Origin: Bacillales bacterium
GTDB lineage: Bacteria; Bacillota; Bacilli; Bacillales; JAVBJX01
Reading direction: 5' to 3'
Assembly (NCBI GenBank): GCA_031546705.1
Contig: JAVBJX010000004.1
Span: forward strand, 1,792 to 65,791
Length of the DNA stretch: 64,000 bases
The notes under the pieces: generated by a model
Database searches by the model: none
What the model was told of the DNA's origin: nothing
The model's input: only the letters and a program-made list of their open reading frames with translations
Position numbers and translations under genes: made by a program
Shown here: positions 30,498-45,648 of the stretch, piece by piece
Layout: each line of letters begins with the position of its first letter
How positions within the stretch are numbered: the stretch's first letter is position 1

Positions 30498-33266
30498 ATG
30501 GGGTATCAGAGGGAAGCGCAGTTAGAGAAACAATTAGTAGCTTAGTTAATCAATCAAGAATATAAAAAAGTCACCATCGCAACAGAAGATGACTTAATGA
30601 ATAACTTTAGAATTCAACTAAGTAAATATAATGAAAAAAAGCTAAATGGAACACCGTTTTCAGACAAAGAATTTGAGAGAATCATTCGTCATTTGGAAGG
30701 GAAAAGTGTCTTTCAAAGTGCCAAACTTCTTCGAGATAAATTTATACTTGAAAGGGAAGATGGTAGTGAGATTTATATAGAATTTTTTGATACAAAACAT
30801 TGGTGTAAAAACTTATTTCAAGTAACAACTCAAACAACTGTAGTCGGTAAATATACAAATCGGTATGATGTGACATTACTGATTAACGGCTTACCACTTA
30901 TTCAAATTGAGTTAAAACGTAGAGGATTGGATTTGAAAGAAGCATTTAATCAAATAGAACGATATAAAAAACATTCCTACCAAGGGCTGTATAGATATCT
31001 TCAAGTGTTTGTAATAAGTAATGGCGTGGATACAAAAAATACTTTGCTAATAATGATCGAGAGCTTTTATTTAGTCATACATTTTTCTGGACGAATGAAA
31101 AAAATGAACGAATTAGTAACCTCAATGAATTTACCGCTACTTTCTTAGAAAAATGCCATATCTCAAAAGTAATCGCCAGATATATGGTCATTAGTGATAC
31201 AGAAAAAATGCTGATGGTTATGCGACCTTATCAAATTTTTGCAGTGGAAGCCCTTGTAAATAGAGCATTAGAAACAAAGAATAATGGTTATGTCTGGCAT
31301 ACAACAGGAAGCGGAAAAACATTAACGTCATTTAAAGTAAGCCAAATATTAGCGAATGAGCCACGCATTAAGAAAGTGTTCTTTCTGATAGATCGAAAAG
31401 ATTTAGACAGCCAAACAATAGCAGAATTTAATAAATTTGAAAAAGATTGCGTAGACACAACAGATAAAACAAGCACATTAGTCAAGCAAATAAAAGAAAA
31501 TACACCGCTGATTATTACAACGATTCAAAAGATGTCACATGCCATTAATTCTCCACAATATGCTGAGATTATGAATCGTTATAAAGATGAACATGTTGTC
31601 TTTATTATTGATGAATGTCACCGCTCGCAATTTGGCGATATGCACAAGTTAATCAACACACATTTTTCCAATGCCTAATACTTTGGCTTTACTGGCACAC
31701 CACGTTTTACAGAGAATAGAAGCCAAGATGGACGCAGCACAGCCGATTTATTTGAGAAGTGTTTGCATACGTATTTGATTAAAGATGCGATTAAAGACAA
31801 TAATGTGTTAGGTTTTTCGATAGAATATATTAAAACTTTTTCAGGGCAATTTGAAGAAGAGGATGACACACGGATCAGTGCCATTGATACAGAGGAGGTG
31901 TTTATGAGTGATGAGCGAATTTATTTAGTTAGTGAACACATGCTCAAACATCACGCTTTAAAAACAAGAAATATGACCTACACAGCAATTTTTACCGTGC
32001 AAAGCATACCAATGCTCATTAAATATTATGATAAGTTGAAAGAACTCAACCAACCTTTAAAGATAGCGGGCATATTCACCTTTGGAGCAAATGAAAATAG
32101 CGAAGGCAGGGATGAACATTGAACATTCCAGAGATAGTTTAGAAAGAATGATAGGGGATTATAACCAGCTTTTTGCCACAAACTTTTCAACAGATACGTT
32201 CTCAAATTATTTTGCCGATGTCTCCAAAAAAGTGAAGACAGCTCAAATTGATATTTTACTAGTTGTAAATATGTTTTTGACTGGCTTTGATAGTAAAACA
32301 CTAAACACATTGTATGTAGACAAAAATTTAACGTATCATGACTTACTTCAAGCTTTTTCAAGAACAAATCGAGTAGAAAAATCAACCAAGCCATATGGAA
32401 ATATTGTGTGTTATAGAAATTTAAAGAAGCAAACAGATGAAGCTATCTGTCTATTTTCACAAACACATAGTACAGATACCGTACTCATGCAAAGCTATGA
32501 GCATTATTTAAAACTGTTTAAAGTACAAGTTGAAAAATTATTTCATATGGCTCTTACACCAAATGACGTTGATTTACTTGAGAGTGAAGAAGATAAGAAA
32601 CAATTTATTATTGTATTTAGAGAGTTATCCAAGCTTCTCCTAAAGCTACAATCATTTACAGAATTTGAGTTTGATGAAAATATGCTAGGGATGAGTGAAC
32701 AGAAATATCAAGATTTCAAAAGCAAATATTTCTTATTGTATGATGAAACAAAAATAGCTAATGGCGAAAAAGTTTCTATTCTATCTGATATTGATTTTGC
32801 TATTGAACTGATGCACACAGATAAAATCAATGTAAATTACATTATGAATTTGATTAGAAATATTGATCTTGGAAATAAAGAGAAGAGAGAAAAAGATATT
32901 CAGCATATTATTACCGAGCTAGAGCGAGCGGATAGTGAAGAACTAAGACTCAAAGTAGACCTCTTAAAAGCATTCTTAGAAAAAGTCGTGCCACATCTTG
33001 AGCCAGAAGATTCGATTGATGATGCTTATATGGAGTTTGAAGATGTCCAGAGGAAAGAAGAAGTAAATCAGTTTGCGAGTGAAATAGGAATGGAAACAAA
33101 GATGATAAAAGAGCATATTTCGGAGTATGAATATGCTAGGGTTATTAATCAGGAATTGTTAAGTGACTCTATTAAGGCTTCTACTAATGCCACGTTTTTA
33201 AAGAGAATAGAAATAACGAAACAAGTGAAAGAGTTTATTACTACACATGTGGTGAGGTATGAGTGA
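30498..33266 (+). pseudogene. hsdR: Type I restriction enzyme R subunit, multiply disrupted
   Basis: ATG 30498; TTGTTT-17-TATAAT upstream. Lesions: in-frame TAG 30543-45; frame change in A-run 31034-39 (..GVDTK|[17 protein letters not shown]..); in-frame TAA 31676-78 ([14 protein letters not shown]); second frame change ~32095-32120. Motifs [37 protein letters not shown] across track ORFs 30597-, 31184-, 31763-, 32082-33266. Confidence 0.9.
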
Positions 33267-33305: not shown

Positions 33306-33821
33306 ATGATGAGCATGATAGGTAACTATTGTATGATTACAAAAGAGCAATTTGACGCATTACACAATCAAGAAATCTCTATATCAAATTTTCTTTATTC
33401 AGAGCCTAGTAAAAGAGAAGCTAAAAATTTTTTAGACATTGATAAAGCGTGGGATGCGATCCAGTTTACATTGACTGGACATGGTTTTATAGATGTAGGG
33501 AATACAGAAAGAACACCATTATTTGATATTGTTGTGGGTGGACAATCCATTAGTGAAGAAGATGTGGGTTATGGGTGTGCAAGATATTTAACAAATAAAG
33601 AAGTGAAAGAATGCTATCAAGCTATTAAAAATATCACAAAAACGGAATGGAAGTCTAAGTTTAATATGAATGAAATGCTAATAGAACAAGTGTATCCATT
33701 ATATGGAGCTGAAGATGAAGAGGAATTTTTTGAGTATACTTATAACCATTTCGAAGCGTTACAACATTTCTTCAGAACAGCAAGTGATGAGGATAGGTAT
33801 ATGTTGTTATATATTAACTAA
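33306..33821 (+). CDS. YfbM/DUF1877-family protein
   Basis: 171 aa. M(S)MIGNY.., LDIDKAWDAIQFTLTG parallel E. coli YfbM (MGMIGYF.., LDIDKRWDFLHFGLTG) as I recall it. The start could be 33309. Confidence 0.6.
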   Translation: MMSMIGNYCMITKEQFDALHNQEISISNFLYSEPSKREAKNFLDIDKAWDAIQFTLTGHGFIDVGNTERTPLFDIVVGGQSISEEDVGYGCARYLTNKEVKECYQAIKNITKTEWKSKFNMNEMLIEQVYPLYGAEDEEEFFEYTYNHFEALQHFFRTASDEDRYMLLYIN

Positions 33822-33835
33822 GGGACAGTGAAGAT

Positions 33836-33880
33836 AGTTTGGGACAATTAGATTTTTTTCTTTTGTCCCAAACTCTTTAT
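33836..33880. terminator. Bidirectional terminator between convergent genes
   Basis: AGTTTGGGACAA / TTGTCCCAAACT stem with a T-rich loop; sits between the + YfbM-like gene and the - cargo block. Confidence 0.7.
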
Positions 33881-33906
33881 AAAAAGATGGTTTTTGCATT
33901 CAGGAA

Positions 33907-34431
33907 CTACATTGTCTCATAATCAATCCATTTTTCATCAGCATAACTGCATGTATAACAAGTTAATCCAATTGTAATCCATCCAAAAGCATTGACCCAA
34001 TCATCCTCTGAAAACTCAGATGTTTCATCTCCAAGTTCTAGTTCATTAATAAAATCCTCTTTACCCTCTGAAGAAATAAATATCCTTATACGGTGAATAT
34101 CAGAACCACATTGAGGGCAATTCCATGAAGTTAATGTATTCTCAGGTGGAGAGATACCATCATGACACACAAATCCATTCCAACCATGCTTGCTGTCATC
34201 AAAAATTATATATTCTTTCTGACAATCCATACAAATAGTCTTGATTACTAAAGCATAATCATCCTCGTAGCTACGAACTTGAGGATATCCATTAGAAGTA
34301 TCAGCAAATATTTTTATATGAAAACACTTGCATCCACATGTACAACGAATCTCTCCATTTATCTGATACTCATTGTTTTTATTTCCTATAGGAATGAAAA
34401 TATCATGCAAATGTATGGGGATGGGTAACAT
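33907..34431 (-). CDS. Hypothetical Cys-rich protein (several CxxC pairs, Zn-ribbon-like)
   Basis: 174 aa. CTCGCKC, CMDCQ, CPQCG, CYTC pairs; RBS GGAGGAATAAATATG. No family recognised. Confidence 0.55.
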   Translation of the reverse strand: MLPIPIHLHDIFIPIGNKNNEYQINGEIRCTCGCKCFHIKIFADTSNGYPQVRSYEDDYALVIKTICMDCQKEYIIFDDSKHGWNGFVCHDGISPPENTLTSWNCPQCGSDIHRIRIFISSEGKEDFINELELGDETSEFSEDDWVNAFGWITIGLTCYTCSYADEKWIDYETM

Positions 34432-34473
34432 ATTTATTCCTCCTATATTTCTTGCGACAATTTGTTTCAGTAT

Positions 34474-35103
34474 TTACAATCCACTTTCCGTAAATGACAA
34501 CCAATTTTTATATTTTATTTTATATGTATCTCTTTCCTCACGAGTAGCTAGAAAAATGTCTACTCCACCATCATAAGGAGCGATGATACGATTTTTCATA
34601 ACATCTATTATTAAGATTTTACATGTAAATGTATCCGTATTTCCATCCAAATAAATTGTTTTACCTCCATTAGCAACTTCCGTTAAATAGTCGTTCAAAT
34701 CACCTGTTAGCCAAACTTTATTGATAAATACTGAGTGCAGATAGAATTCATTCTCATATTCCTCAGAAAGTACAGTGTCAAGACGAATGCTGTTCAAGAT
34801 AATTGCATCAGGTACTGTTTCAAAAAAGTTTTCGGAGGGCTCATCAGACATAGTAGATAGAAACAACAAATACTGATTTTGCTCACCAATTAAATCACTT
34901 ATCAAAGCATTTTGTCTATCAAGGATAATTTCCATTTCTTTGTTGTTGTCAGCATATCGTTTGGAATTTGGTAAACTGTGAATTCGAAACCACCTGTCAT
35001 GAAAGAAATGATTTCTGATTATGTGTCCGATTGGCAACAGTTCAGCATACTTATCAGCCCAAAACTTCTCAAATTGTTGTTTAGTTATTTTTTCTTGTTG
35101 CAT
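34474..35103 (-). CDS. Conserved hypothetical protein (motif DRWFRIHSLPNSKRY; family name uncertain)
   Basis: 209-aa ORF with RBS AGTAGGAGAA. The motif is one I recall from widespread hypothetical proteins, but I cannot assign the Pfam family with confidence. Confidence 0.5.
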   Translation of the reverse strand: MQQEKITKQQFEKFWADKYAELLPIGHIIRNHFFHDRWFRIHSLPNSKRYADNNKEMEIILDRQNALISDLIGEQNQYLLFLSTMSDEPSENFFETVPDAIILNSIRLDTVLSEEYENEFYLHSVFINKVWLTGDLNDYLTEVANGGKTIYLDGNTDTFTCKILIIDVMKNRIIAPYDGGVDIFLATREERDTYKIKYKNWLSFTESGL

Positions 35104-35151
35104 AAGATTCTCCTACTGATTAATTGTAAAAATCAACCATTTTCTTTTTCA

Positions 35152-35871
35152 TCAATCTGTGTAAAAGTTAGCAGTTGCACCCAAACTACATAAATACTCC
35201 ATGTCGTCTTTGAGATGTTTCAAGTATCCTTTTTTAACTTCTATTAAAGGCTGTTTACTCAATGTTAACGTCTGCTGAGGTGTTAGTCCCAATTCTGTTT
35301 TAAGGTAGGTGATCACTTTCATTTTGTTTGGACCACGTTCAATAGTACCGAGGTTAGTAATAATGAGCCTACCCATAATCCAATCAGACGTATCAACACT
35401 TGTTGATTCATTTTCAGTACGTTCTTGATTGAACTCCTCATGTACCTCTTTCCAAAATTCATTATTAATATCTATGATTTGCGTTAAAAGTCCCATTTCA
35501 CTAGGGAATTTTTCTTCATTTTCTTTAATTTTTTGTAAAATAGACTCAAACTGATCAGTAGTTTCTGCAACTTGAATTGGTTCCCACATACCTGCTCCAT
35601 GAAAAGAAAAATAGACAGGATATCCTAGTTTCTGTTCAGAGAAATCTACATAGAAAGGATCAGCAAAATAGTTTTGTGCAATTACATACCAGTTCTCTTG
35701 CCAGTCACCATTTTTTTCTGAAACAAGAGATTTCCCTGTACAAGCATGAATACGATATCCTATTTGCATATCATTGAAATTTTCGACATTAACATAACGA
35801 TTTGGTAATATACACATATCGCTGATAATATTAGATTTAATCAGATGTTTTATTTCAATAGGTATATCCAT
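35152..35871 (-). CDS. SMI1/KNR4 (SUKH)-like protein with possible L7/L12-C-like tail
   Basis: 239 aa. ..W.ENWYVIAQNYFADPFYVDF....YPVYF..HG.G.W.. resembles SUKH immunity-type domains. The C-terminal KVITYLKTELGLTPQQ...L.....IEVKKG is L7/L12-CTD-like (tentative). Confidence 0.5.
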   Translation of the reverse strand: MDIPIEIKHLIKSNIISDMCILPNRYVNVENFNDMQIGYRIHACTGKSLVSEKNGDWQENWYVIAQNYFADPFYVDFSEQKLGYPVYFSFHGAGMWEPIQVAETTDQFESILQKIKENEEKFPSEMGLLTQIIDINNEFWKEVHEEFNQERTENESTSVDTSDWIMGRLIITNLGTIERGPNKMKVITYLKTELGLTPQQTLTLSKQPLIEVKKGYLKHLKDDMEYLCSLGATANFYTD

Positions 35872-35994
35872 TATGTATCCTCTCCAATTCTTTTAATTAT
35901 AACTAACATTTTCTAGTATAGTTTCAATACTTACAGGAAAGTAGTTATTCACATCTACCCCAACATTAAAAGCTCTGTCTCCTAAAATATTTAA

Positions 35995-36432
35995 TCACTC
36001 TTTTTGAATAGGATCTTTACTACAATTATGTACATGACCATACAGATGAATAGAATCTCTAAAATAGCCATCCCATTCTAAAATTGGATAGTGAAAAAGC
36101 ACAAACTTTCTTTTTTTATAATCCAACACATAATAGTCTTTAATCCATTCAAATTGTTGTGTATTAAAATTTTCATCATTTACATATTTATCATGATTTC
36201 CTCTGATTAAATATTTTTTGCCTTTCAATTTCTTGAGGATTTCATTTGCTTCCATGCCATTCCCTTTATGAATAAGATCGCCTAATATATAAATCTCATC
36301 TCGGTCAGATATATAGGAATTCCAATTTCGAATCAACGACCTGTGCATATCATCCAGATTTTTGAACGGTCTATTGTTGAGATTAATAACATTAGAATGA
36401 TAGAAATGGGTATCGGCAGTAAAGTAAATCAT
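35995..36432 (-). CDS. Small calcineurin-like metallophosphoesterase
   Basis: ORF 35995-36453; ATG at comp(36430-36432) follows GGAGGTG. Motifs DTHFYH, GDLIHKG, GNHD, GHVH. Confidence 0.8.
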   Translation of the reverse strand: MIYFTADTHFYHSNVINLNNRPFKNLDDMHRSLIRNWNSYISDRDEIYILGDLIHKGNGMEANEILKKLKGKKYLIRGNHDKYVNDENFNTQQFEWIKDYYVLDYKKRKFVLFHYPILEWDGYFRDSIHLYGHVHNCSKDPIQKE

Positions 36433-36577
36433 ATTTTCACCTCCATTATTCATAATAAAGTAAGTTAATTGCTGAAAATAAAAACGGATTATTTTTCTTA
36501 TAATGAATTATACAAAGTAGGATGAATGAATACAAGTTGGAGTTTCAATGGTTGATGCTGGTATTTTAGAAACATGA

Positions 36578-37003
36578 TACAATAATTATCACAATGTATA
36601 TCAGCTTTATGATAAAAATACAGATTCATTATTTACAGACTTGTTGGAAATAAATACGCTTGAATTGCCTAAGTTACCAATAGAAACAGATGACACAGCA
36701 TTGTTTAACTGGTTAAGTTTCCTAAAAGCTGAACAAGAGGAGGAATACGAAATGCTTGCCGAAAAAAATCAAAGTATAAGTAAAGCATATGGCGTATTAA
36801 AAGAATTAAGCCAAGATGAACGGACAAGACTTCTTTTTGAGGAACGAGAGAAAGCACGGCGTGATGAAATGGCAAGAATAGAAGGAGCTTATTCAAATGG
36901 AAAAAGAGATGTAGCAATAAAAGCTTTGAAAAAAGGTATGTCCATTGAGGATATAGTTGACTTGACTTATCATGAAGTACAACAAATAGCAGATAGTATG
37001 TAA
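36578..37003 (+). pseudogene. 5'-truncated Rpn (YhgA-like) family gene: C-terminal domain only
   Basis: The open frame after TGA 36575-77 reads ..HNVYQLYDKNTDSLFTDLLEINTLELPKL.. This parallels residues ..HNTFQLYEKNERFLLVDDLEIHTIELPKL.. of the full copy at 41982-42839. The N-terminal nuclease domain is absent, and no SD precedes the TTG at 36641. Confidence 0.7.
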
Positions 37004-37008
37004 CACAG

Positions 37009-37047
37009 AAGTGACTTATATCATTAGACGGTATGAGTCACTTTTTT
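37009..37047 (+). terminator. Terminator after Rpn fragment
   Basis: AAGTGACT / AGTCACTT stem followed by TTTT. Confidence 0.65.
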
Positions 37048-37131
37048 ACATCAAAACAAAACTCCTGTTTGCAAACACCCCTTTTTTTCTGTATGCTCAT
37101 TTATATAGAAGAAACAAATCAGGAGGACAAT

Positions 37132-38484
37132 AGGTCAACAAACGAAAAGCACCAAGAACAACAATCTTCTCTACACACAAAATTATGGGCAATCGCCAAT
37201 GATTTAAGAGGAAATATGGAAGCCAATGAATTTAAGAATTATATATTAGGATTAATATTCTACCGCTACTTATCTGAAAAAGTAGAAGGGCGTGTCGAAA
37301 ATTTACTATCAGAAGATAAAATTTCTTATGAAGAAGCATGGCAAAATGAAGAGTACAAAAAAGCACTACAAGACGAACTTCTCGGACAAATTGGTTACTT
37401 TGTTGAGCCGAAATATTTATTCTCTTCCTTAATGAAAGACATCCAATCAGGAGATTTTGATATTGAAATATTGCAAGGGGCAATTATGCGTATGAATATT
37501 TAATCGGACAATTTGCGGCAAATGCTGGAAAGAAAGCGGGAGAATTCTATACACCACAACAAGTATCAAAAATCCTTGCGAAATTAGTAACGATAGGGAA
37601 AAAAGATTTAAGAAATGTCTATGATCCTACTTGTGGCTCTGGCTCATTACTCTTACGTGTTTCCAAAGAAGCGAATGTCCGTAAATTCTATGGTCAAGAA
37701 TTAACATCGACAACGTACAATCTCGCTCGCATGAACATGCTATTACATGACGTATCATATCAAAATTTTGACATTAAAAATGAAGACACATTAGAACACC
37801 CAGAACACACCCACAAAAAATTTGAAGCCATTGTTGCCAATCCACCGTACAGTGCCAATTGGAGTGCTGATCCGAAATTTTTGGATGATGAAAGATTTAG
37901 TGTGTACGGAAAATTAGCACCAAAATCAAAGGCAGACTTTGCCTTCATTCAACACATGATTTACCAACTAGATGACAAAGGAATCATGGCAGTTGTCTTA
38001 CCACATGGTGTATTATTTCGAGGAGCAGCCGAAGGGGTTATTAGAAAATATTTGATAGAAGAAAAAAATTATTTAGATGCCGTCATTGGCTTACCTGCAA
38101 ATATCTTCTTTGGCACATCCATTCCAACCGTTATTCTTGTGTTTAAAAAATGCCGTAAAAGTGGCGACAATGTTTTATTTATAGATGCTTCTAATGACTT
38201 TGAGAAAGCAAAAAATCAAAACGCATTACGTAATCAAGATGTAGAGAAGATTATATTAACGTATGTAGCTCGTGAAACAGTTGAAAAGTATGAGTATGTC
38301 GCAACTTTGCAGGAAATTAGGGAGAATGATTATAACTTAAAATATTCCTAGATATGTCGATACATTTGAGGAAGAAGAAATGATTGATGTGGAAGCGGTG
38401 AAGGTACAGATTCAACAAATTGATGAGGAAATTGTTGAGATTGATAAGCAATTAGAAGTTTATTTGAAAGAGTTGGGGTTGTAA
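37132..38484 (+). pseudogene. hsdM: Type I R-M methyltransferase subunit, multiply disrupted
   Basis: AGGAGG 37121-26 is followed 5 nt later by AGG (37132), where ..STNEKHQEQQSSLHTKLWAIANDLRG begins (probable ATG>AGG). Internal deletion/frame break ~37475-37488 (ILQGAI|AYEYLIGQFAANAGKKAGEFYTP). NPPY at VANPPYS. Extra A in run 38339-42 precedes ..NIPRYVDTFEEEE..KELGL*, stop 38482-84. Confidence 0.88.
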
Positions 38485-38487
38485 GGG

Positions 38488-39669
38488 GTGGAAGTGTTGG
38501 AGAAGAAAGTTCCTAAGTTGAGGTTTTCGGGGTTTAGTGGGGAGTGGGAGGAGAAAGGGCTAGGAGACATTGTTGAAATATCAAAATCTAAATATAACCC
38601 TGTAAACAGGAAAAAAAGTTACAAATGTATAGAACTAGAAAACTTATCCCAAGAGACCGGAAGGATATTAGGATACTTTAATTCTGACGAACAAAAAAGT
38701 ATAAAAAATAAATTCAATGAGGGAGAGGTACTTTTTGGAAAGTTAAGACCTTATTTGAAAAAGTATTGGAAAGCGGAATTTGATGGAGTTTGTTCTAGTG
38801 AAATATGGGTTTTAAAGGGAAAAGGAATTTCTAATGATTTTCTCTTTAGAATAGTTCAAACGGATAAATTTAATTTTATTTCAAATATATCGTCAGGTTC
38901 AAAAATGCCAAGAGCTGATTGGAGTTACATGTCTGAATTTTCTTTTAGTATTCCATCTTTAGAAGAACAACAAAAAATAGCAAACTTCTTTTCTCTTATT
39001 GACCAAAAAATGGAGAAACAACGAAAGAAAGTTAAGTCTTTAGAGCAGTATAAAAAAGGGATGATGCAGAAGATTTTTTCACAGGAGATACGGTTTAAGG
39101 ATGAAAACGGTGGGGAGTATCCAGAGTGGAAAAAAACAAAGATTGGTCAATTATTTGCTGAGAGAAGTAGTAAAGGATTTGCAAGTAAAGAGTTATTATC
39201 TGTGACAATTAATAACGGAGTAATAAAAAGAAATGAGATTGAAGGTAAAGATAATTCTAGTGAAAATAAAGAAAACTACAAATTAGTTTCGATTTCGGAT
39301 ATTGTTTATAATTCTATGAGAATGTGGCAAGGAGCAAGCGGGGTTTCCAATTATGAAGGAATAGTTAGTCCAGCATATACAGTTCTTGTTCCTCAAAAGA
39401 GTGTAAATAGCCACTATTTTGGATATCTATTTAAAACAACAAAAATGATATATCAATTTAGAGTTAATTCTCAAGGTTTAACATCTGATACATGGAATTT
39501 AAAGTATCCATTAATAAAAGATATAGCCATTAAAGTTCCATCCTTCGAGGAACAAGGAAAAATAGTAGCCCTTTTATCACAATTTGATTTTAAAATTAAA
39601 AATGAACAAAAGAAATTGGAGTTACTAAACCAATGGAAAAAATCCCTACTACAACAAATGTTTATCTAA
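38488..39669 (+). CDS. hsdS: Type I R-M specificity subunit HsdS (apparently intact)
   Basis: 393 aa; GTG 38488 lies 3 nt after the hsdM stop. Two target-recognition halves are separated by conserved LEEQQKIANFFSLID..., with C-terminal FEEQGKIVALLSQFD... helices. Confidence 0.88.
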   Translation: MEVLEKKVPKLRFSGFSGEWEEKGLGDIVEISKSKYNPVNRKKSYKCIELENLSQETGRILGYFNSDEQKSIKNKFNEGEVLFGKLRPYLKKYWKAEFDGVCSSEIWVLKGKGISNDFLFRIVQTDKFNFISNISSGSKMPRADWSYMSEFSFSIPSLEEQQKIANFFSLIDQKMEKQRKKVKSLEQYKKGMMQKIFSQEIRFKDENGGEYPEWKKTKIGQLFAERSSKGFASKELLSVTINNGVIKRNEIEGKDNSSENKENYKLVSISDIVYNSMRMWQGASGVSNYEGIVSPAYTVLVPQKSVNSHYFGYLFKTTKMIYQFRVNSQGLTSDTWNLKYPLIKDIAIKVPSFEEQGKIVALLSQFDFKIKNEQKKLELLNQWKKSLLQQMFI

Positions 39670-39733
39670 CAAGAAAATAAATCTCATATCAGCTATCAAA
39701 TTTGAAAGAAAACAAATAGGGGTGAAAAGTCTA

Positions 39734-40924
39734 ATGCTTATTAAATCATTTAGTTATCACGATAAATTGAGAAATTGGAAGTTGGAAAAAGTAGATTTTC
39801 AAGAACTTACATTATTGGTTGGAGCTTCAGGTGTAGGTAAAACCAAAATCTTAAAAGCGTTAGAAAATCTTAAAAGAATAGCCTTTGAAAGTAGCTTTCT
39901 TTTTATGGGATTTGGAGATGATCTCAAAGAAGCATTAGGAAATATAATTCAGAGAATATCTTGGAATCTTGAATTTGAAGAGAAAGATCGTACCTACATT
40001 TGGCAGGGAGAAACAGATTATCAAGAAGATAACGCAATGGAATTTGAAAGATTCTCATTAAGTAAAGACTTTAGTATAAATTCAGAGAAACTCACAATAG
40101 AATCTGAACAAGAAAGTATAACGATTTTTGAACGTAATAAAAATCAAATAGTTGTTAATGGAAAAGAATCTCCAAAAATAACTCAGTCAAGAAGTTGTAT
40201 GGATATATTTTCAAGTGAAGATAGCATTAAAAAAGCAGTAGAAGGCTTAGAAAAAATGTTGTTTTTTCATTTTGAAGAAGAAAAAAATCAGTTAGTTAGT
40301 AAAATTTTGGAGATAGATACTTTTAAAGATTTTAATGTGTCACTTGATTCTATAAAAAAAAGCAATTTATCTACAGTCAGTAAATTAGTTTTTGTGTATA
40401 CACGATTTCCCTCTAAATTTTTAGAAATAAAAAAACAGTTTATTGAAGTATTCCCATATGTAACAGATGTTGCATATAAGTTAATTGAGAACAATAAATG
40501 GAATGAACAATATAAAGATGATATGGTTTATGAACTCCATATTAAAGAAGAAGACAGATGGATAAGCAAAAATGACATTTCTTCTGGAATGTTAAAAACT
40601 CTTCTATTCATCTCCATGCTACACCTATCCCCAGAAGGTAGCGTAATTTTCGTTGATGAATTTGAAAATAGCCTAGGAATTAATTGCATTGACATTCTAT
40701 CTTCCATTGCTTCTAGCACATATAGCAACCAACTTATTTTAACAAGCCATCATCCATATATAATTAATAATATTTCCATGAATAATTGGAAGATTGTTAG
40801 TCGAAAAGGTGGTACAGTTGTCGTTAAAAGTGCGGAAGATTATGATTTAGGTAAATCAAAACATAAAGCTTTTATGCAATTATTAAATTTGGAAGCTTAT
40901 AGAGAAGGAAGGGATTCTGATTGA
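39734..40924 (+). CDS. ABC-type (AAA_15/21-like, OLD/AbiLi/RloA-class) ATPase
   Basis: ORF 39722-40924; ATG 39734 follows AGGGGTGA. Walker A GASGVGKT, signature SSGM, Walker B VIFVDEFENSLG, H-loop LTSHHP, with a ~250-aa insert between Walker A and the signature. Confidence 0.8.
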   Translation: MLIKSFSYHDKLRNWKLEKVDFQELTLLVGASGVGKTKILKALENLKRIAFESSFLFMGFGDDLKEALGNIIQRISWNLEFEEKDRTYIWQGETDYQEDNAMEFERFSLSKDFSINSEKLTIESEQESITIFERNKNQIVVNGKESPKITQSRSCMDIFSSEDSIKKAVEGLEKMLFFHFEEEKNQLVSKILEIDTFKDFNVSLDSIKKSNLSTVSKLVFVYTRFPSKFLEIKKQFIEVFPYVTDVAYKLIENNKWNEQYKDDMVYELHIKEEDRWISKNDISSGMLKTLLFISMLHLSPEGSVIFVDEFENSLGINCIDILSSIASSTYSNQLILTSHHPYIINNISMNNWKIVSRKGGTVVVKSAEDYDLGKSKHKAFMQLLNLEAYREGRDSD

Positions 40925-41616
40925 ACTTATACATTTTAGTTGAAGGGCAATCAGAAGCAAATGTTTATCCAAAATGGTTAGCGGAACTAATCCCAGACTT
41001 TATCCGCATCCAAAATCCATATGATGTTTTGGATAATAATTATGTTCTTTATAGTTGTGGTGGTTTTCCGAGTATTTTGGATGAAATAAAACCTGCTGTT
41101 GAAGAAATGAATGAGATTAAGAAATTTGAGTACCTACTCATTGTAATAGATGCAGATGAATTGGATGTAGAAGATCGGAAACAGGAAGTATTAGATGTAT
41201 TTGTTGAAGAGAAATTAGATTTCGATTTAAATAAATTGTTTATAATCGTACAAAATCGCTGTTTTGAAAGTTGGTGTCTTGGGAATACGAGATTTTTTCC
41301 TAGCAATATAGAAACTACAGACTTTCAAATATGTAGGAATCATTACGATGTTAAAACGCAAGACCCAGAAAAAATGCCAAGAGATACGAACATCAAAACT
41401 ATTACAACTGTAGCACAATACCATGCATATTATTTGAAAAAGATGTTTGCTGAAAGAAAACTAACGTACAAAAAAGCGGGATGCGAAGTTGTTGGTGAAG
41501 GATATTATTTAGAAGAACTAATTAAGCGAATAGAGAATACTACCCATTTGAACACATTTAGAAATTTTGTCAGTGTGTTGAAAATGATAAATGAGAAAGT
41601 TACTGTGTCCAATTAA
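40921..41616 (+). CDS. Toprim-like DUF4276/RloB-type protein, translationally coupled to the ATPase
   Basis: The TTG start overlaps the ATPase stop (TTGA 40921-24). Contains LYILVEGQSE (E8), LLIVIDADELD (D77/D79) and a CFESWCL motif. Family assignment is by remembered motif layout and needs an HMM check. Confidence 0.65.
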   Translation: MNLYILVEGQSEANVYPKWLAELIPDFIRIQNPYDVLDNNYVLYSCGGFPSILDEIKPAVEEMNEIKKFEYLLIVIDADELDVEDRKQEVLDVFVEEKLDFDLNKLFIIVQNRCFESWCLGNTRFFPSNIETTDFQICRNHYDVKTQDPEKMPRDTNIKTITTVAQYHAYYLKKMFAERKLTYKKAGCEVVGEGYYLEELIKRIENTTHLNTFRNFVSVLKMINEKVTVSN

Positions 41617-41677: not shown

Positions 41678-41899
41678 ATGCCAGACATCAAATTTGAAAT
41701 CAAACAAACAATCGGAAGTATTTCACAGTCTCCAAAAGGATGGAACAGGGAACTAAATTTCATTAGTTGGAATGATAAAGAACCAAAATATGATTTAAGA
41801 GATTGGTCACCAAATCATGAAAAAATGGGCAAGGGGATAACACTTAGTGTAGAGGAATTAAAAAGTCTAAAAAACATTTTAAATGAAATGGATTTGTAA
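41678..41899 (+). CDS. ydbC: YdbC / PC4-like single-stranded DNA-binding protein
   Basis: 73 aa; RBS ACGGAGGAAA. ..KGWNRELNFISWNDKEPKYDLRDWSPNHEKMGKGITLS.EE matches the YdbC family as I recall it. Confidence 0.75.
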   Translation: MPDIKFEIKQTIGSISQSPKGWNRELNFISWNDKEPKYDLRDWSPNHEKMGKGITLSVEELKSLKNILNEMDL

Positions 41900-41981
41900 G
41901 TTCACAGCTAGTACAAATGATTTTATATATTTCGTAATTTTCCTCTCTTCTTGGTATAATAATCAAAAGGGAGGATTTCTT

Positions 41982-42839
41982 ATGAGAACCATGCGTCCAA
42001 TTAATGATATAGTTTTCAAACAGTTATTCGGTCAAGAGGAAAACAAAGACTTATTGCTTTCTTTTTTAAATGCCGTTTTGCGTCTTCCAACACCGCTAGA
42101 TACTATCACGCTCATTGATCCTCATTTAAATGCCGATCAAATAGGCGATAAAAATTCTATTCTCGATGTGAGAGCTAAAACAAAAACAGGGGAACAAATC
42201 AATATTGAAGTTCAATTAGTAAACCAAAAAGATATTGAAAAGCGAACATTGTATTACTGGTCAAAAATGTATGAGAAACAATTAGTGGAGGGAGAGCTAT
42301 ACAAAAATCTCAAAAAAACCATCACGATTAATATTCTTAATTTCAAGTATTTCTCTACTGAACAGTTGCATAACACTTTTCAACTATATGAAAAAAACGA
42401 ACGCTTTTTACTTGTAGATGATTTGGAAATTCATACGATTGAACTTCCAAAACTCACAGAAGAATACCTTGAATCGGGTGAGTTACTCGCTAAATGGTTA
42501 GCTTTTTTACGAGTAAATGAAGAGACAGAATTGGAGGAATTTAGAATGCAAATTCAAGAGCCAATGATCGAAAAGGCAGTAAATTTATTAAGTATCATCA
42601 ATGGTGATCCAGAAAAACGTAGATTGTACGAAATGAGAGAAAAGGCAATGAGAGATCATGCGAATATTATGGAAACTGTAATGGAAAAGGGTATGGAAAA
42701 GGGCATAGAAAAAGGGAAACAAGAAGGAATAGAGGAAGTAGTTAAAAATATGCTAAAAGAGGATATGGAAATTTCTACCATCTCTAAAGTGACAAAAATG
42801 CCTATAGAAGACATTGAAAAGATAAAATCGAATATGTAA
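41982..42839 (+). CDS. Rpn-family recombination-promoting nuclease / putative transposase (YhgA-like PD-(D/E)XK), full length
   Basis: ORF 41883-42839. ATG 41982 follows AAGGGAGGA and a TGGTATAAT extended -10 (41951-60). N-terminus INDIVFKQLFG..LLLSFLNAVL, ILDVRAK..INIEVQL nuclease core. Confidence 0.8.
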   Translation: MRTMRPINDIVFKQLFGQEENKDLLLSFLNAVLRLPTPLDTITLIDPHLNADQIGDKNSILDVRAKTKTGEQINIEVQLVNQKDIEKRTLYYWSKMYEKQLVEGELYKNLKKTITINILNFKYFSTEQLHNTFQLYEKNERFLLVDDLEIHTIELPKLTEEYLESGELLAKWLAFLRVNEETELEEFRMQIQEPMIEKAVNLLSIINGDPEKRRLYEMREKAMRDHANIMETVMEKGMEKGIEKGKQEGIEEVVKNMLKEDMEISTISKVTKMPIEDIEKIKSNM

Positions 42840-42884
42840 ATCTGCTACAATCAACATAAAGATATAGAATTGGAAGTGTTTAAA

Positions 42885-43339
42885 ATGAAAATATTCTTCA
42901 AAGAAACATCCATGGGAAAAATTGGCATTAGAGAAAACAATGGCTTTATTACTCATCTATATTTTGAAATGGATACAATTCCAGAGGATATAGAACTATG
43001 TGAAACACGCTTATCAAGATAGCTTTTGAACAACTAGACAGCTATTTGAATAAGCAAATCACAGAATTTTCTCTGCCGATGATACCAGATGGAACGGTTT
43101 TTATGAAAAATGTATGGCAAAAACTTTGTGAAGTACCATATGGAACAATGGCGAATTATAAAGACATTGCCACAGCGATAGAAAATCCAAAAGCTGTTTG
43201 GGCGGTGGGCATGGTAAATAACAAGAACCCGATTCCCATTTTTATTCCGTGTCATAGAATTATTGGATCACATGGAAAACTAGTAGGCTATCGTGGTGGT
43301 TTGGATATGAAGAAGAAATTGTTAGAGCTAGAAACATAG
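42885..43339 (+). pseudogene. Methylated-DNA-protein-cysteine methyltransferase paralog with frameshift
   Basis: ATG 42885. MKIFFKETSMGKIGIRENNG.. parallels the intact ogt N-terminus. A 1-nt loss ~43011-14 leads to TAG 43020-22. The remainder (track ORF 43046-43339) keeps IPCHRIIG. Confidence 0.8.
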
Positions 43340-45030: not shown

Positions 45031-45174
45031 AATGATTGTAGCAACATGTATACTAATAATATTCAGCTTCATACAGCATTTTAGTGAACTGGACATAAAA
45101 ATTTTAACCACTCTTATAGACATGATGAAGTGGTCATAACCCTATACATGGAGAATGAACAGGAGGTAATAACT

Positions 45175-45648
45175 TTGAAAAATATATTTTTTTATCAAAC
45201 AGAGATTGGTGAGATTGGGATTGAAGAAAATGCTAGAGCGATTACAAATGTCTATTTTGGTAGGCAACCTATATCTAGTGATGCTACATTAAAAGAAACA
45301 GCTTTGCTTAAAGAGTCGGCGAAACAATTAAATGAATATCTCCAAGGAAATAGAAAAGTGTTTGATTTACCACTGGAGCCTACAGGAACTGAATTTCAGA
45401 CAAAAGTTTGGACTAATTTGCTTACAATTCCATATGGTCAAACGTATAGTTACAGAGAAGTTGCAAGTTCTATAGGAAAAGAGAAAGCGACACGTGCAGT
45501 AGGGAATGCAAATAACAAAAATCCAATTCTTATTTTTATTCCTTGTCATCGTGTTGTGGGGTCTGATGGTAAACTGGTTGGCTATGCCGGAGGATTAGAA
45601 ATCAAGAAACATCTATTGAATTTAGAGAAGCAATATGCAAATAGTTAA
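45175..45648 (+). CDS. ogt: Methylated-DNA-protein-cysteine methyltransferase (Ogt/AdaB)
   Basis: ORF 45130-45648; TTG 45175 follows CAGGAGGTAA. ..TEFQTKVW..L..IPYGQTYSY.E.A...G...A.RAVGNANNKNP..I.IPCHRVVG. Confidence 0.9.
   Translation: MKNIFFYQTEIGEIGIEENARAITNVYFGRQPISSDATLKETALLKESAKQLNEYLQGNRKVFDLPLEPTGTEFQTKVWTNLLTIPYGQTYSYREVASSIGKEKATRAVGNANNKNPILIFIPCHRVVGSDGKLVGYAGGLEIKKHLLNLEKQYANS

Follow-up and report, generated by a model that had tools for sequence, protein, structure and literature searches.

INTRODUCTION

ABC ATPases paired with Toprim proteins are among the most widespread predicted immune modules. To our knowledge, only PARIS, Gabija, and OLD have mechanisms among these pairs, while AbiL, RloAB, HEC-01, and MADS3-4 are black boxes. 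Here, we analyzed a 64,000-nt stretch of DNA from a Bacillales bacterium (GTDB lineage JAVBJX01; GenBank assembly GCA_031546705.1, contig JAVBJX010000004.1, positions 1,792 to 65,791 of the forward strand), hereafter referred to as the window, in which two intact open reading frames (ORFs), ORF1 and ORF2, encode such a pair beside the remains of a type I restriction-modification (R-M) operon. The original prediction, made from the sequence, had singled out ORF1 and ORF2 as an intact ABC-ATPase and Toprim-like pair of the DUF4276/RloB type and as a candidate defense module independent of the dead R-M system, a claim that the evidence below supports. On balance, we consider it probable that the two genes form a self-contained, horizontally mobile anti-phage cassette acting by abortive infection or exclusion. 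The features of the pair are as follows (positions are those of the window, both Shine-Dalgarno-like sites being read from the sequence):

39719..39726, + strand, Shine-Dalgarno-like AGGGGTGA, 7 nt 5′ of the ORF1 ATG
39734..40924, + strand, ORF1, 396 aa, Rad50/SMC-like ABC ATPase (AAA_21 type)
40904..40914, + strand, Shine-Dalgarno-like GAAGGAAGGGA for ORF2, within the 3′ end of ORF1
40921..40924, + strand, TTGA start/stop overlap, the translational-coupling junction
40921..41616, + strand, ORF2, 231 aa, Toprim-like (DUF4276/RloB/AbiLii-related)

AbiL of Lactococcus lactis is an experimentally shown abortive-infection system, and a model of its AbiLii protein superposes on OLD 6NJV (PMC13064643). 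Like the window pair, AbiL is a two-gene operon in which an ABC ATPase is followed by a small Toprim-like protein, and it provided the best PADLOC matches for both ORF1 (AbiLi) and ORF2 (AbiLii). However, ORF1 matches AbiLi over profile positions 72–270 of 326, and the best AbiLii stretch of ORF2 covers only positions 32–68 of 170. AbiLi is also longer (453 aa, with PARIS-i superposed over 212) than the 396-aa ORF1 product, and the window pair belongs to a separate family of about 814 clusters at 50% identity. HEC-01 (Hma-embedded candidate 01) likewise combines an ABC ATPase with a TOPRIM protein and is embedded in or located next to other immune systems, much as the window pair lies beside hsdS, but the similarity by hidden Markov model (HMM) is weak, and the window family is not generally embedded in other systems. 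In MADS, Mad4 is a DUF4276 homolog and Mad3 is an AAA15/21 ABC ATPase, and the window pair gave PADLOC matches to mad3 and mad4. In contrast to the window pair, which is flanked by hsdS and a PC4-like gene with no mad-type partners, MADS is a multi-gene, methylation-associated system; MAD3 was the only NCBIfam model matched by ORF1, at 28.4 bits and far below its cutoff of 420, and no model there names ORF1.

PARIS supplies the mechanistic template for pairs of this kind, and its ATPase AriA was the solved structure best matched by the ORF1 profile by sequence (8ux9, 5.5e-5, among PDB sequences). Yet AriA is a 464-aa protein with trigger-binding coiled-coil legs, whereas the ORF1 model has no long coiled coil, and AriB, with a mass of about 35 kDa, belongs to the DUF4435/OLD-type Toprim proteins, whereas ORF2 had no DUF4435 match at E ≤ 0.1 in Pfam and AriB was absent among its PADLOC matches. 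The OLD family (P2 Old and Gabija GajA) shares the ATPase type and the "LVEGxTE … DxD" Toprim signature with the window pair, and the pair is found in P2-like prophages at exactly the site that holds old in P2. OLD and GajA, however, are single fused polypeptides rather than the products of two genes, and neither showed a significant structural or sequence match to ORF2 over the whole Toprim domain. Campylobacter RloA/RloB are an ATPase and RloB-type Toprim-like pair located among type I R-M hsd genes, but the window ORF2 matches RloB at only E = 0.012, and association with R-M systems is not a property of its family.

The window pair belongs to the split ABC-ATPase and Toprim class, with AbiL, HEC-01, MADS3-4, and RloAB as its nearest relatives and a PARIS-like logic, and it falls outside strict membership of each of the named families (DUF4276, AbiL, MADS, PARIS, OLD, and R-M-embedded pairs). 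It is best described as a new member family within the known ABC-ATPase and Toprim kind, not as something categorically new.

RESULTS

ORF1 encodes a compact ABC ATPase

The ORF1 start codon (ATG 39734) is also the start in the public gene call. The protein carries, as originally predicted, a GASGVGKT Walker A motif (residues 30–37), an SSGM signature (residues 283–286), a Walker B region VIFVDEFENSLG (residues 303–314) with the Walker B/D-loop motif DEFENSLG, and an LTSHHP H-loop (residues 336–341), with a spacing of ~245 residues between Walker A and the signature. The catalytic columns proved invariant in a 58-sequence alignment of the ORF1 family, namely Walker A residues G30, G33, G35, K36, and T37, signature residues S283, G285, and M286, Walker B residues D308–N312, and H339 of the H-loop. 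ORF1 matched Pfam AAA_21 over the entire profile (positions 1–304 of 304; 1.8e-18) with 68.1 bits versus a cutoff of 27, and its PADLOC matches were AbiLi (1.3e-21), AriA (1.4e-18), HEC-01A (2e-17), and mad3 (9e-12).

The AlphaFold2 (AF2) model of ORF1 (pLDDT [predicted local distance difference test], 83; pTM [predicted template modeling score], 0.85) shows a compact head lacking a long coiled coil. Foldseek matched this model to Rad50 (5da9, 9e-12) and to PtuA of retron-IA (9n6c, 2e-11), PtuA being the ATPase of retron-Septu complexes; there were 207 PDB matches at E ≤ 1e-3, and the 50 best listed were Rad50/SbcC, retron PtuA, or SMC heads. By its motifs, Pfam score, and head fold, ORF1 is an ABC ATPase of the AAA_21/AAA_15 (Rad50/SMC-like) group, and its Rad50/PtuA-like head bears an ABC ATPase active site that is complete.

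Separately, the window ORF1 contains an in-frame 17-residue insertion, SSFLFMGFGDDLKEALGNII, after the Walker A helix (39890–39945; residues about 53–70). This insertion is window-specific, being absent from the other 57 aligned homologs (with every second row displayed), and the model has low confidence in this region (pLDDT < 50 at residues 54–59).

ORF2 encodes a Toprim-like protein at the periphery of the DUF4276/RloB/AbiLii group

As in the original prediction, ORF2 begins with a TTG (40921) that overlaps the end of ORF1 within TTGA. This TTG lies 6–7 nt downstream of GAAGGAAGGGA. This start is confirmed by its homologs, since all of them keep the MNLY[FI]LVEG N-terminus. The predicted motifs ILVEGQSE (E8 and E12), LLIVIDADELD (D77, D79, and E80), and CFESWCL (C114 and E116) are all present and are conserved among 71 homologs. 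Specifically, E8, E12, C114, E116, and E150 are invariant (71/71), D77 is kept in 70/71, position 79 is D or E in 70/71, and position 80 is E or D in 68/71.

ORF2 matched Pfam DUF4276 (PF14103) at E = 3.1e-6 (28.0 bits; profile positions 1–140 of 192), with further sub-threshold matches to DUF3226 (2.7e-4), RloB (0.012, as above), and OLD-like_TOPRIM (0.052). Its PADLOC matches were AbiLii (2e-5), mad4 (2.6e-4), and HEC-01B (7e-4). Among 18 members of the ORF2 family, 13 matched DUF4276 (E < 0.01; best, 3.5e-9), 6 matched RloB (best, 4e-5), and 17 matched AbiLii in PADLOC (best, 3.2e-7).

The AF2 model of ORF2 (pLDDT, 95.1; pTM, 0.90) consists of a beta-alpha-beta-alpha-beta-alpha-beta-alpha N-terminal domain (residues about 1–120) followed by a helical C-terminal domain. 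A strand spanning residues 3–7 is followed by E8, and strand 3 (residues 71–77) ends at D77, which is followed by D79 and E80; the model thereby places the conserved acidic residues at the sites of the Glu and DxD in Toprim domains. In a single, pre-chosen comparison with a single-sequence target, hhalign aligned the 71-sequence ORF2 profile with P2 Old (ORF2 5–60 to Old 395–444; 48 columns) at E = 0.0025 and a probability of 12%. The aligned stretch of Old covers only the Glu-motif region (LLVEGKTETNV), with "LVEGxxE" aligned to Old 395–406, and the ILADCDF of Old comes at the expected distance after it. RecR, used as a control against the ORF2 profile, gave E = 0.41.

Previous studies have placed DUF4276 and RloB in the Toprim superfamily (PMC12065111) and have classed as Toprim proteins both AbiLii (PMC13064643) and HEC-01B, the latter with an OLD metal-binding site (Payne et al., bioRxiv 10.1101/2024.01.29.577857). 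DUF4276, RloB, and AbiLii have also been assigned to defense in the literature. We therefore base the Toprim assignment of ORF2 on the position of its motifs and the weak profile evidence together with this classing of its relatives. In terms of sequence, ORF2 is a peripheral relative of the DUF4276/RloB/AbiLii group and not a clean DUF4276 member.

The two genes are conserved as one unit

Within a set of 1.84 billion representatives, the relatives of ORF2 made up 814 clusters at 50% identity, each about 220–250 aa long, and the family occurs mainly in cyanobacteria, Bacteroidota, and Bacillales. In a set of 185,579 species genomes, which does not include the window genome and in which the best ORF2 match reached 45% identity, we found 483 ORF2 stretches across many phyla, amounting to a patchy distribution of about 0.26%. 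An exact search of a contig index for the window ORF2 gave no record. An ORF1 homolog lies directly upstream of the ORF2 homolog in all 88 related loci; it is full-length, is 33–46% identical to the window ORF1, and ends at the start of ORF2, so the conserved neighborhood that the original prediction had anticipated was found throughout. Among the 83 loci in which both genes are complete, the two overlap by 4 nt in 51 and by 1 nt in 11 (62/83 together), and they are separate ORFs in every case, never fused. Furthermore, the pairwise identities of ORF1 and ORF2 are correlated (Mantel r = 0.72, with 0/999 permutations as high). ORF1 and ORF2 are thus obligate partners that are translationally coupled and co-evolving, and their pairing goes far beyond chance.

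No conserved third gene was found among the two nearest ORFs on each side of the pair. The nearest ORFs represented 247 Pfam families among 134 upstream ORFs and 196 among 139 downstream ORFs, with only 4–5 occurrences of the commonest family, and no R-M family was among the commonest ones. A relative of the PC4-like gene that follows ORF2 in the window was found beside the pair in none of the 88 related loci, and this gene is probably unrelated cargo.

Individual loci varied widely in their surroundings. In a Methylovulum metagenome-assembled genome, the pair lies between hisG and hisD (L007, 6895–8681; also L008), inside a string of histidine-biosynthesis genes, which shows how compact and promiscuous the cassette is. 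In some genomes (about 6 of roughly 75 species loci), a second AAA ATPase gene, which is mad3-like (PADLOC mad3 down to 5e-45), adjoins the pair, and one species locus has Septu PtuA/PtuB next door; these loci may be small defense clusters. In about 480 species genomes, the pair is annotated only as "hypothetical protein" and "AAA family ATPase" or carries the misleading label "AbiEii toxin".

The pair is carried by phages and plasmids

The closest known relatives of the pair (52% identity for ORF1 and 58% for ORF2) are located on a siphovirus-like contig (L098, 8001–9919; JGI 3300077312). There, the pair follows early genes (DnaB, dUTPase, and a small integrase-family gene) and lies just 5′ of terS, which is followed by terL, portal, and capsid genes. 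Five P2-like prophage contigs from IMG/VR (L092–L096) carry the pair between the gpA nickase gene (plus DinI) and the portal/terminase genes, with flanks that are 76–90% identical among them; the pair is placed in one of them as follows:

4868-6711 of P2-like prophage L092, the pair

This gpA–portal slot is the locus of old and tin in P2, which has been shown to be a defense hotspot by Rousset et al. (PMC9122126). Both the P2 gpA/portal hotspot and the moron slot in front of terS are positions typical of defense or exclusion cargo. Carriage extends to other replicons: on pMsip02 (L089), a 9.8-kb inovirus-like replicon of Methylovorus with Zot, DUF2523, and integrase genes, the pair adjoins the integrase gene, and on the small Acinetobacter plasmid pAV2 (L090) the pair and a RelE/ParE toxin-antitoxin (TA) pair lie together between two identical ISNCY transposase genes. 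The cassette is horizontally mobile among chromosomes, phages, and plasmids.

The pair sits behind hsdS in a variable island

In the window, the pair is surrounded by the following features:

30498..33266, + strand, hsdR pseudogene, with HSDR_N, SWI2_SNF2/ResIII, T1R_D3-like, and EcoR124_C on four ORF fragments
36641-37003, + strand, C-terminal fragment of a second PDDEXK_2 gene
37015..38484, + strand, hsdM pseudogene, with HsdM_N and N6_Mtase fragments in different frames
38488..39669, + strand, hsdS, intact, 393 aa, with two target-recognition domains (two stretches matching Pfam Methylase_S, 2.2e-21), 64 nt 5′ of ORF1
41678-41899, + strand, PC4/YdbC-like single-stranded DNA-binding protein gene, 73 aa (PF02229, 9.5e-13), 61 nt 3′ of ORF2
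41883-42839, + strand, full-length PDDEXK_2 (Rpn-type nuclease/"transposase") gene

The hsdR pseudogene has two in-frame stops (30543-45 and 31676-78) and two frameshifts, and hsdM has two frameshifts, at about 37480 and about 38345; moreover, 3.7 kb of unrelated genes separates hsdR from hsdM. The description of this operon in the original prediction, with hsdS intact and hsdR and hsdM broken, was borne out, but its count of at least seven lesions was not, as the two pseudogenes together hold 6 unambiguous lesions and a seventh is not demonstrable.

The GC content is 27.5–29% over ORF1 versus 32–36% around it. Synteny with the nearest available genome, GCA_031546905.1 (about 80–84% nucleotide identity), begins at about 43611 and runs rightwards, while everything to the left of about 43611, including the pair, is missing from the GCA_031546905.1 contig, which has Mn-catalase and ADH genes there instead. 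The 13 kb around the pair holds several pseudogenes, namely hsdR, hsdM, the PDDEXK_2 fragment, and a split ogt paralog. The pair thus sits in a variable island of the window genome.

Because the pair lies 64 nt 3′ of hsdS, shares its strand, and is set apart from it by no convincing promoter or terminator, it could be regarded as a functional accessory of the type I R-M system, that is, a guard that fires when phage anti-restriction proteins disable HsdMSR and that has here outlived its partner. Such a role has been proposed for Campylobacter RloAB and for PARIS. This explanation would fit the location of RloAB inside type I R-M loci, the sensing of the anti-restriction protein Ocr by PARIS, and the embedding of HEC-01 pairs in Hma systems. 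Nevertheless, we consider it unlikely, because relatives of the window hsdS, hsdM, and hsdR proteins were found by tblastn in none of the 88 related loci, the commonest neighbor families include no R-M family, the closest relatives of the pair are phage cargo, and the R-M partner in the window is dead, with 6 lesions. With neither a third gene conserved beside the pair nor, elsewhere, any relative of the window R-M system next to it, the cassette is autonomous, and its position behind hsdS is particular to this genome. Insertion into a variable island would have put it there by chance, and it is probably independent of the restriction system.

Other genes of the island were noted in passing. 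The block between hsdR and hsdM (33306–36453) encodes a DUF1877 protein (+) followed, on the minus strand, by an unassigned 174-aa protein and DUF3885, SUKH/SMI1_KNR4-like, and metallophosphoesterase proteins, and it resembles a row of orphan immunity genes for polymorphic toxins. To the right of the pair, a second ogt (O6-methylguanine methyltransferase) paralog is split into two ORFs in different frames (42870–43339, +) and is a pseudogene; an intact ogt copy (45130–45648, +) lies 2 kb 3′ of it. We considered whether the two PDDEXK_2 genes mark the ends of a composite transposon around hsdM-hsdS-ORF1-ORF2-PC4 and rejected this idea, as the two copies share only 37% identity and long DNA repeats are absent.

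DISCUSSION

We favor an anti-phage role for the ORF1–ORF2 cassette because of the domain identity of its two proteins, their obligate pairing, the lack of a third gene or R-M partner, carriage by mobile elements, a patchy distribution, the Toprim signature, and the variable-island context. We propose that ORF1 is the sensor and regulator subunit and that ORF2 is a metal-dependent nuclease effector. On the model of PARIS, OLD, and Gabija, ORF1 would form an oligomer that holds ORF2 inactive and senses a phage-derived trigger, whereupon ATP binding or hydrolysis by ORF1 would release or activate ORF2. The latter would then use two metal ions to cut nucleic acid, either DNA or tRNA, and would stop phage replication, possibly at a cost to the cell.

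Several observations weigh against this interpretation. The window ORF2 falls below the Pfam DUF4276 gathering threshold (28.0 vs 30.2 bits), and NCBIfam has no model for ORF2 and none that names either protein. A Foldseek search of PDB and BFVD with the very confident ORF2 model returned no significant match to a solved Toprim structure, the best BFVD match being an "RloB-like protein" at only E = 7.6e-3, and the ORF2 family profile found nothing among PDB sequences; for the Toprim-like assignment in the original prediction, the HMM comparisons (DUF4276, 3e-6; AbiLii, 2e-5) were positive and the structural comparison was negative. Most chromosomal copies of the pair lie among housekeeping genes and not in recognizable defense islands. 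HEC-01, the nearest tested analog, gave no protection in Escherichia coli in one test (bioRxiv 10.1101/2024.01.29.577857). In addition, Fusobacterium AbiLi did not neutralize the toxicity of AbiLii, so that even in AbiL a sequestration of the PARIS type is not established. Carrying the PARIS model over unchanged is further opposed by the lack of AriA-type coiled-coil legs in ORF1, by the fact that ORF2 is not a DUF4435 protein, and by the negative HEC-01 result. The presence of Mad4 in MADS, this HEC-01 test, and the toxicity of AbiLii also make the original statement that the DUF4276 branch had no experimental characterization partly out of date.

A more specific proposal, which we put forward tentatively and at somewhat less than even chances, is that the pair represents a distinct, unnamed family of two-gene ABC-ATPase/Toprim-like immunity cassettes, comprising about 800 clusters at 50% identity, with its own trigger and nucleic-acid target and with a coiled-coil-less ATPase that would sense infection differently from AriA. 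Such a family would be present in cyanobacteria, Bacteroidota, Bacillales, and Proteobacteria and would travel among chromosomes, prophages of the P2-like and siphovirus kinds, inoviruses, and plasmids. It may correspond to an unnamed Nostoc two-gene system to which publications on PARIS and AbiL refer.

An alternative that we regard as improbable is that the cassette has no real antiviral role and instead acts as a selfish, TA-like addiction module, in which a nuclease toxin and an ATPase antidote stabilize the elements and islands that carry them. The tight coupling of the two genes is consistent with this view, as are the copies beside RelE/ParE on a small plasmid and on an integrative inovirus-like replicon, the toxicity of Fusobacterium AbiLii in E. 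coli, and the observation that PARIS formally behaves as a TA pair (PMC13064643). However, AbiLi is no antitoxin for AbiLii, most copies are single chromosomal insertions among housekeeping genes that need no stabilization, and the P2 gpA/portal hotspot and the slot in front of terS are typical of exclusion genes.

It is also improbable that the pair is not functional in this genome. In that case, it would simply be the part of a decaying island that arrived last or had the most luck, and it would be either intact by chance or silenced by the broken hsdM/hsdS promoter context. Several pseudogenes do lie within the surrounding 13 kb, and no clear promoter or terminator of its own was found for the pair in consensus scans, which are uninformative in that their counts were at or below shuffle expectation. 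Moreover, by our estimate from the 6 lesions found over about 4.2 kb, about 2.7 would be expected in the 1.9-kb pair, and the resulting probability of none (about 0.07) is not compelling. The original argument from intactness to selection independent of restriction is, on its own, correspondingly weak. Still, the two ORFs have their full length and retain all residues found to be invariant among the 58 and 71 homologs, and the Shine-Dalgarno site of each ORF is intact, as is the coupling junction. Selection independent of restriction is therefore plausible and is better supported by the retention of all family-invariant residues and by the independence of the whole family from R-M systems.

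Finally, a role as a DNA repair or recombination accessory, in which a Rad50/RecF-like ATPase and a Toprim partner would act on the host's own DNA by a RecF-RecR domain logic, is suggested by the Rad50, SbcC, and SMC heads among the best structural matches of ORF1 and by recQ, uvrB, and recR among some neighbors of the pair, but it is very unlikely in view of the patchy distribution (about 0.26% of species genomes), the carriage by phages and plasmids, the lack of a conserved repair neighbor (commonest family, 5 times in 134), the lack of a RecR match for the ORF2 profile (E = 0.41), and the absence of a long Rad50/SMC coiled coil from ORF1.

If the ORF1–ORF2 pair is indeed an anti-phage cassette, it offers a tractable entry point into this class of immune modules, as it is small (396 + 231 aa), has no third gene, comes with usable models, and exists in phage-borne versions in well-understood hotspots. 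Recognizing it would have value for annotation, given that the pair is now hidden under uninformative labels in about 480 species genomes. It also opens the questions of how a Toprim nuclease is licensed by so minimal an ABC ATPase and of what that nuclease cuts.

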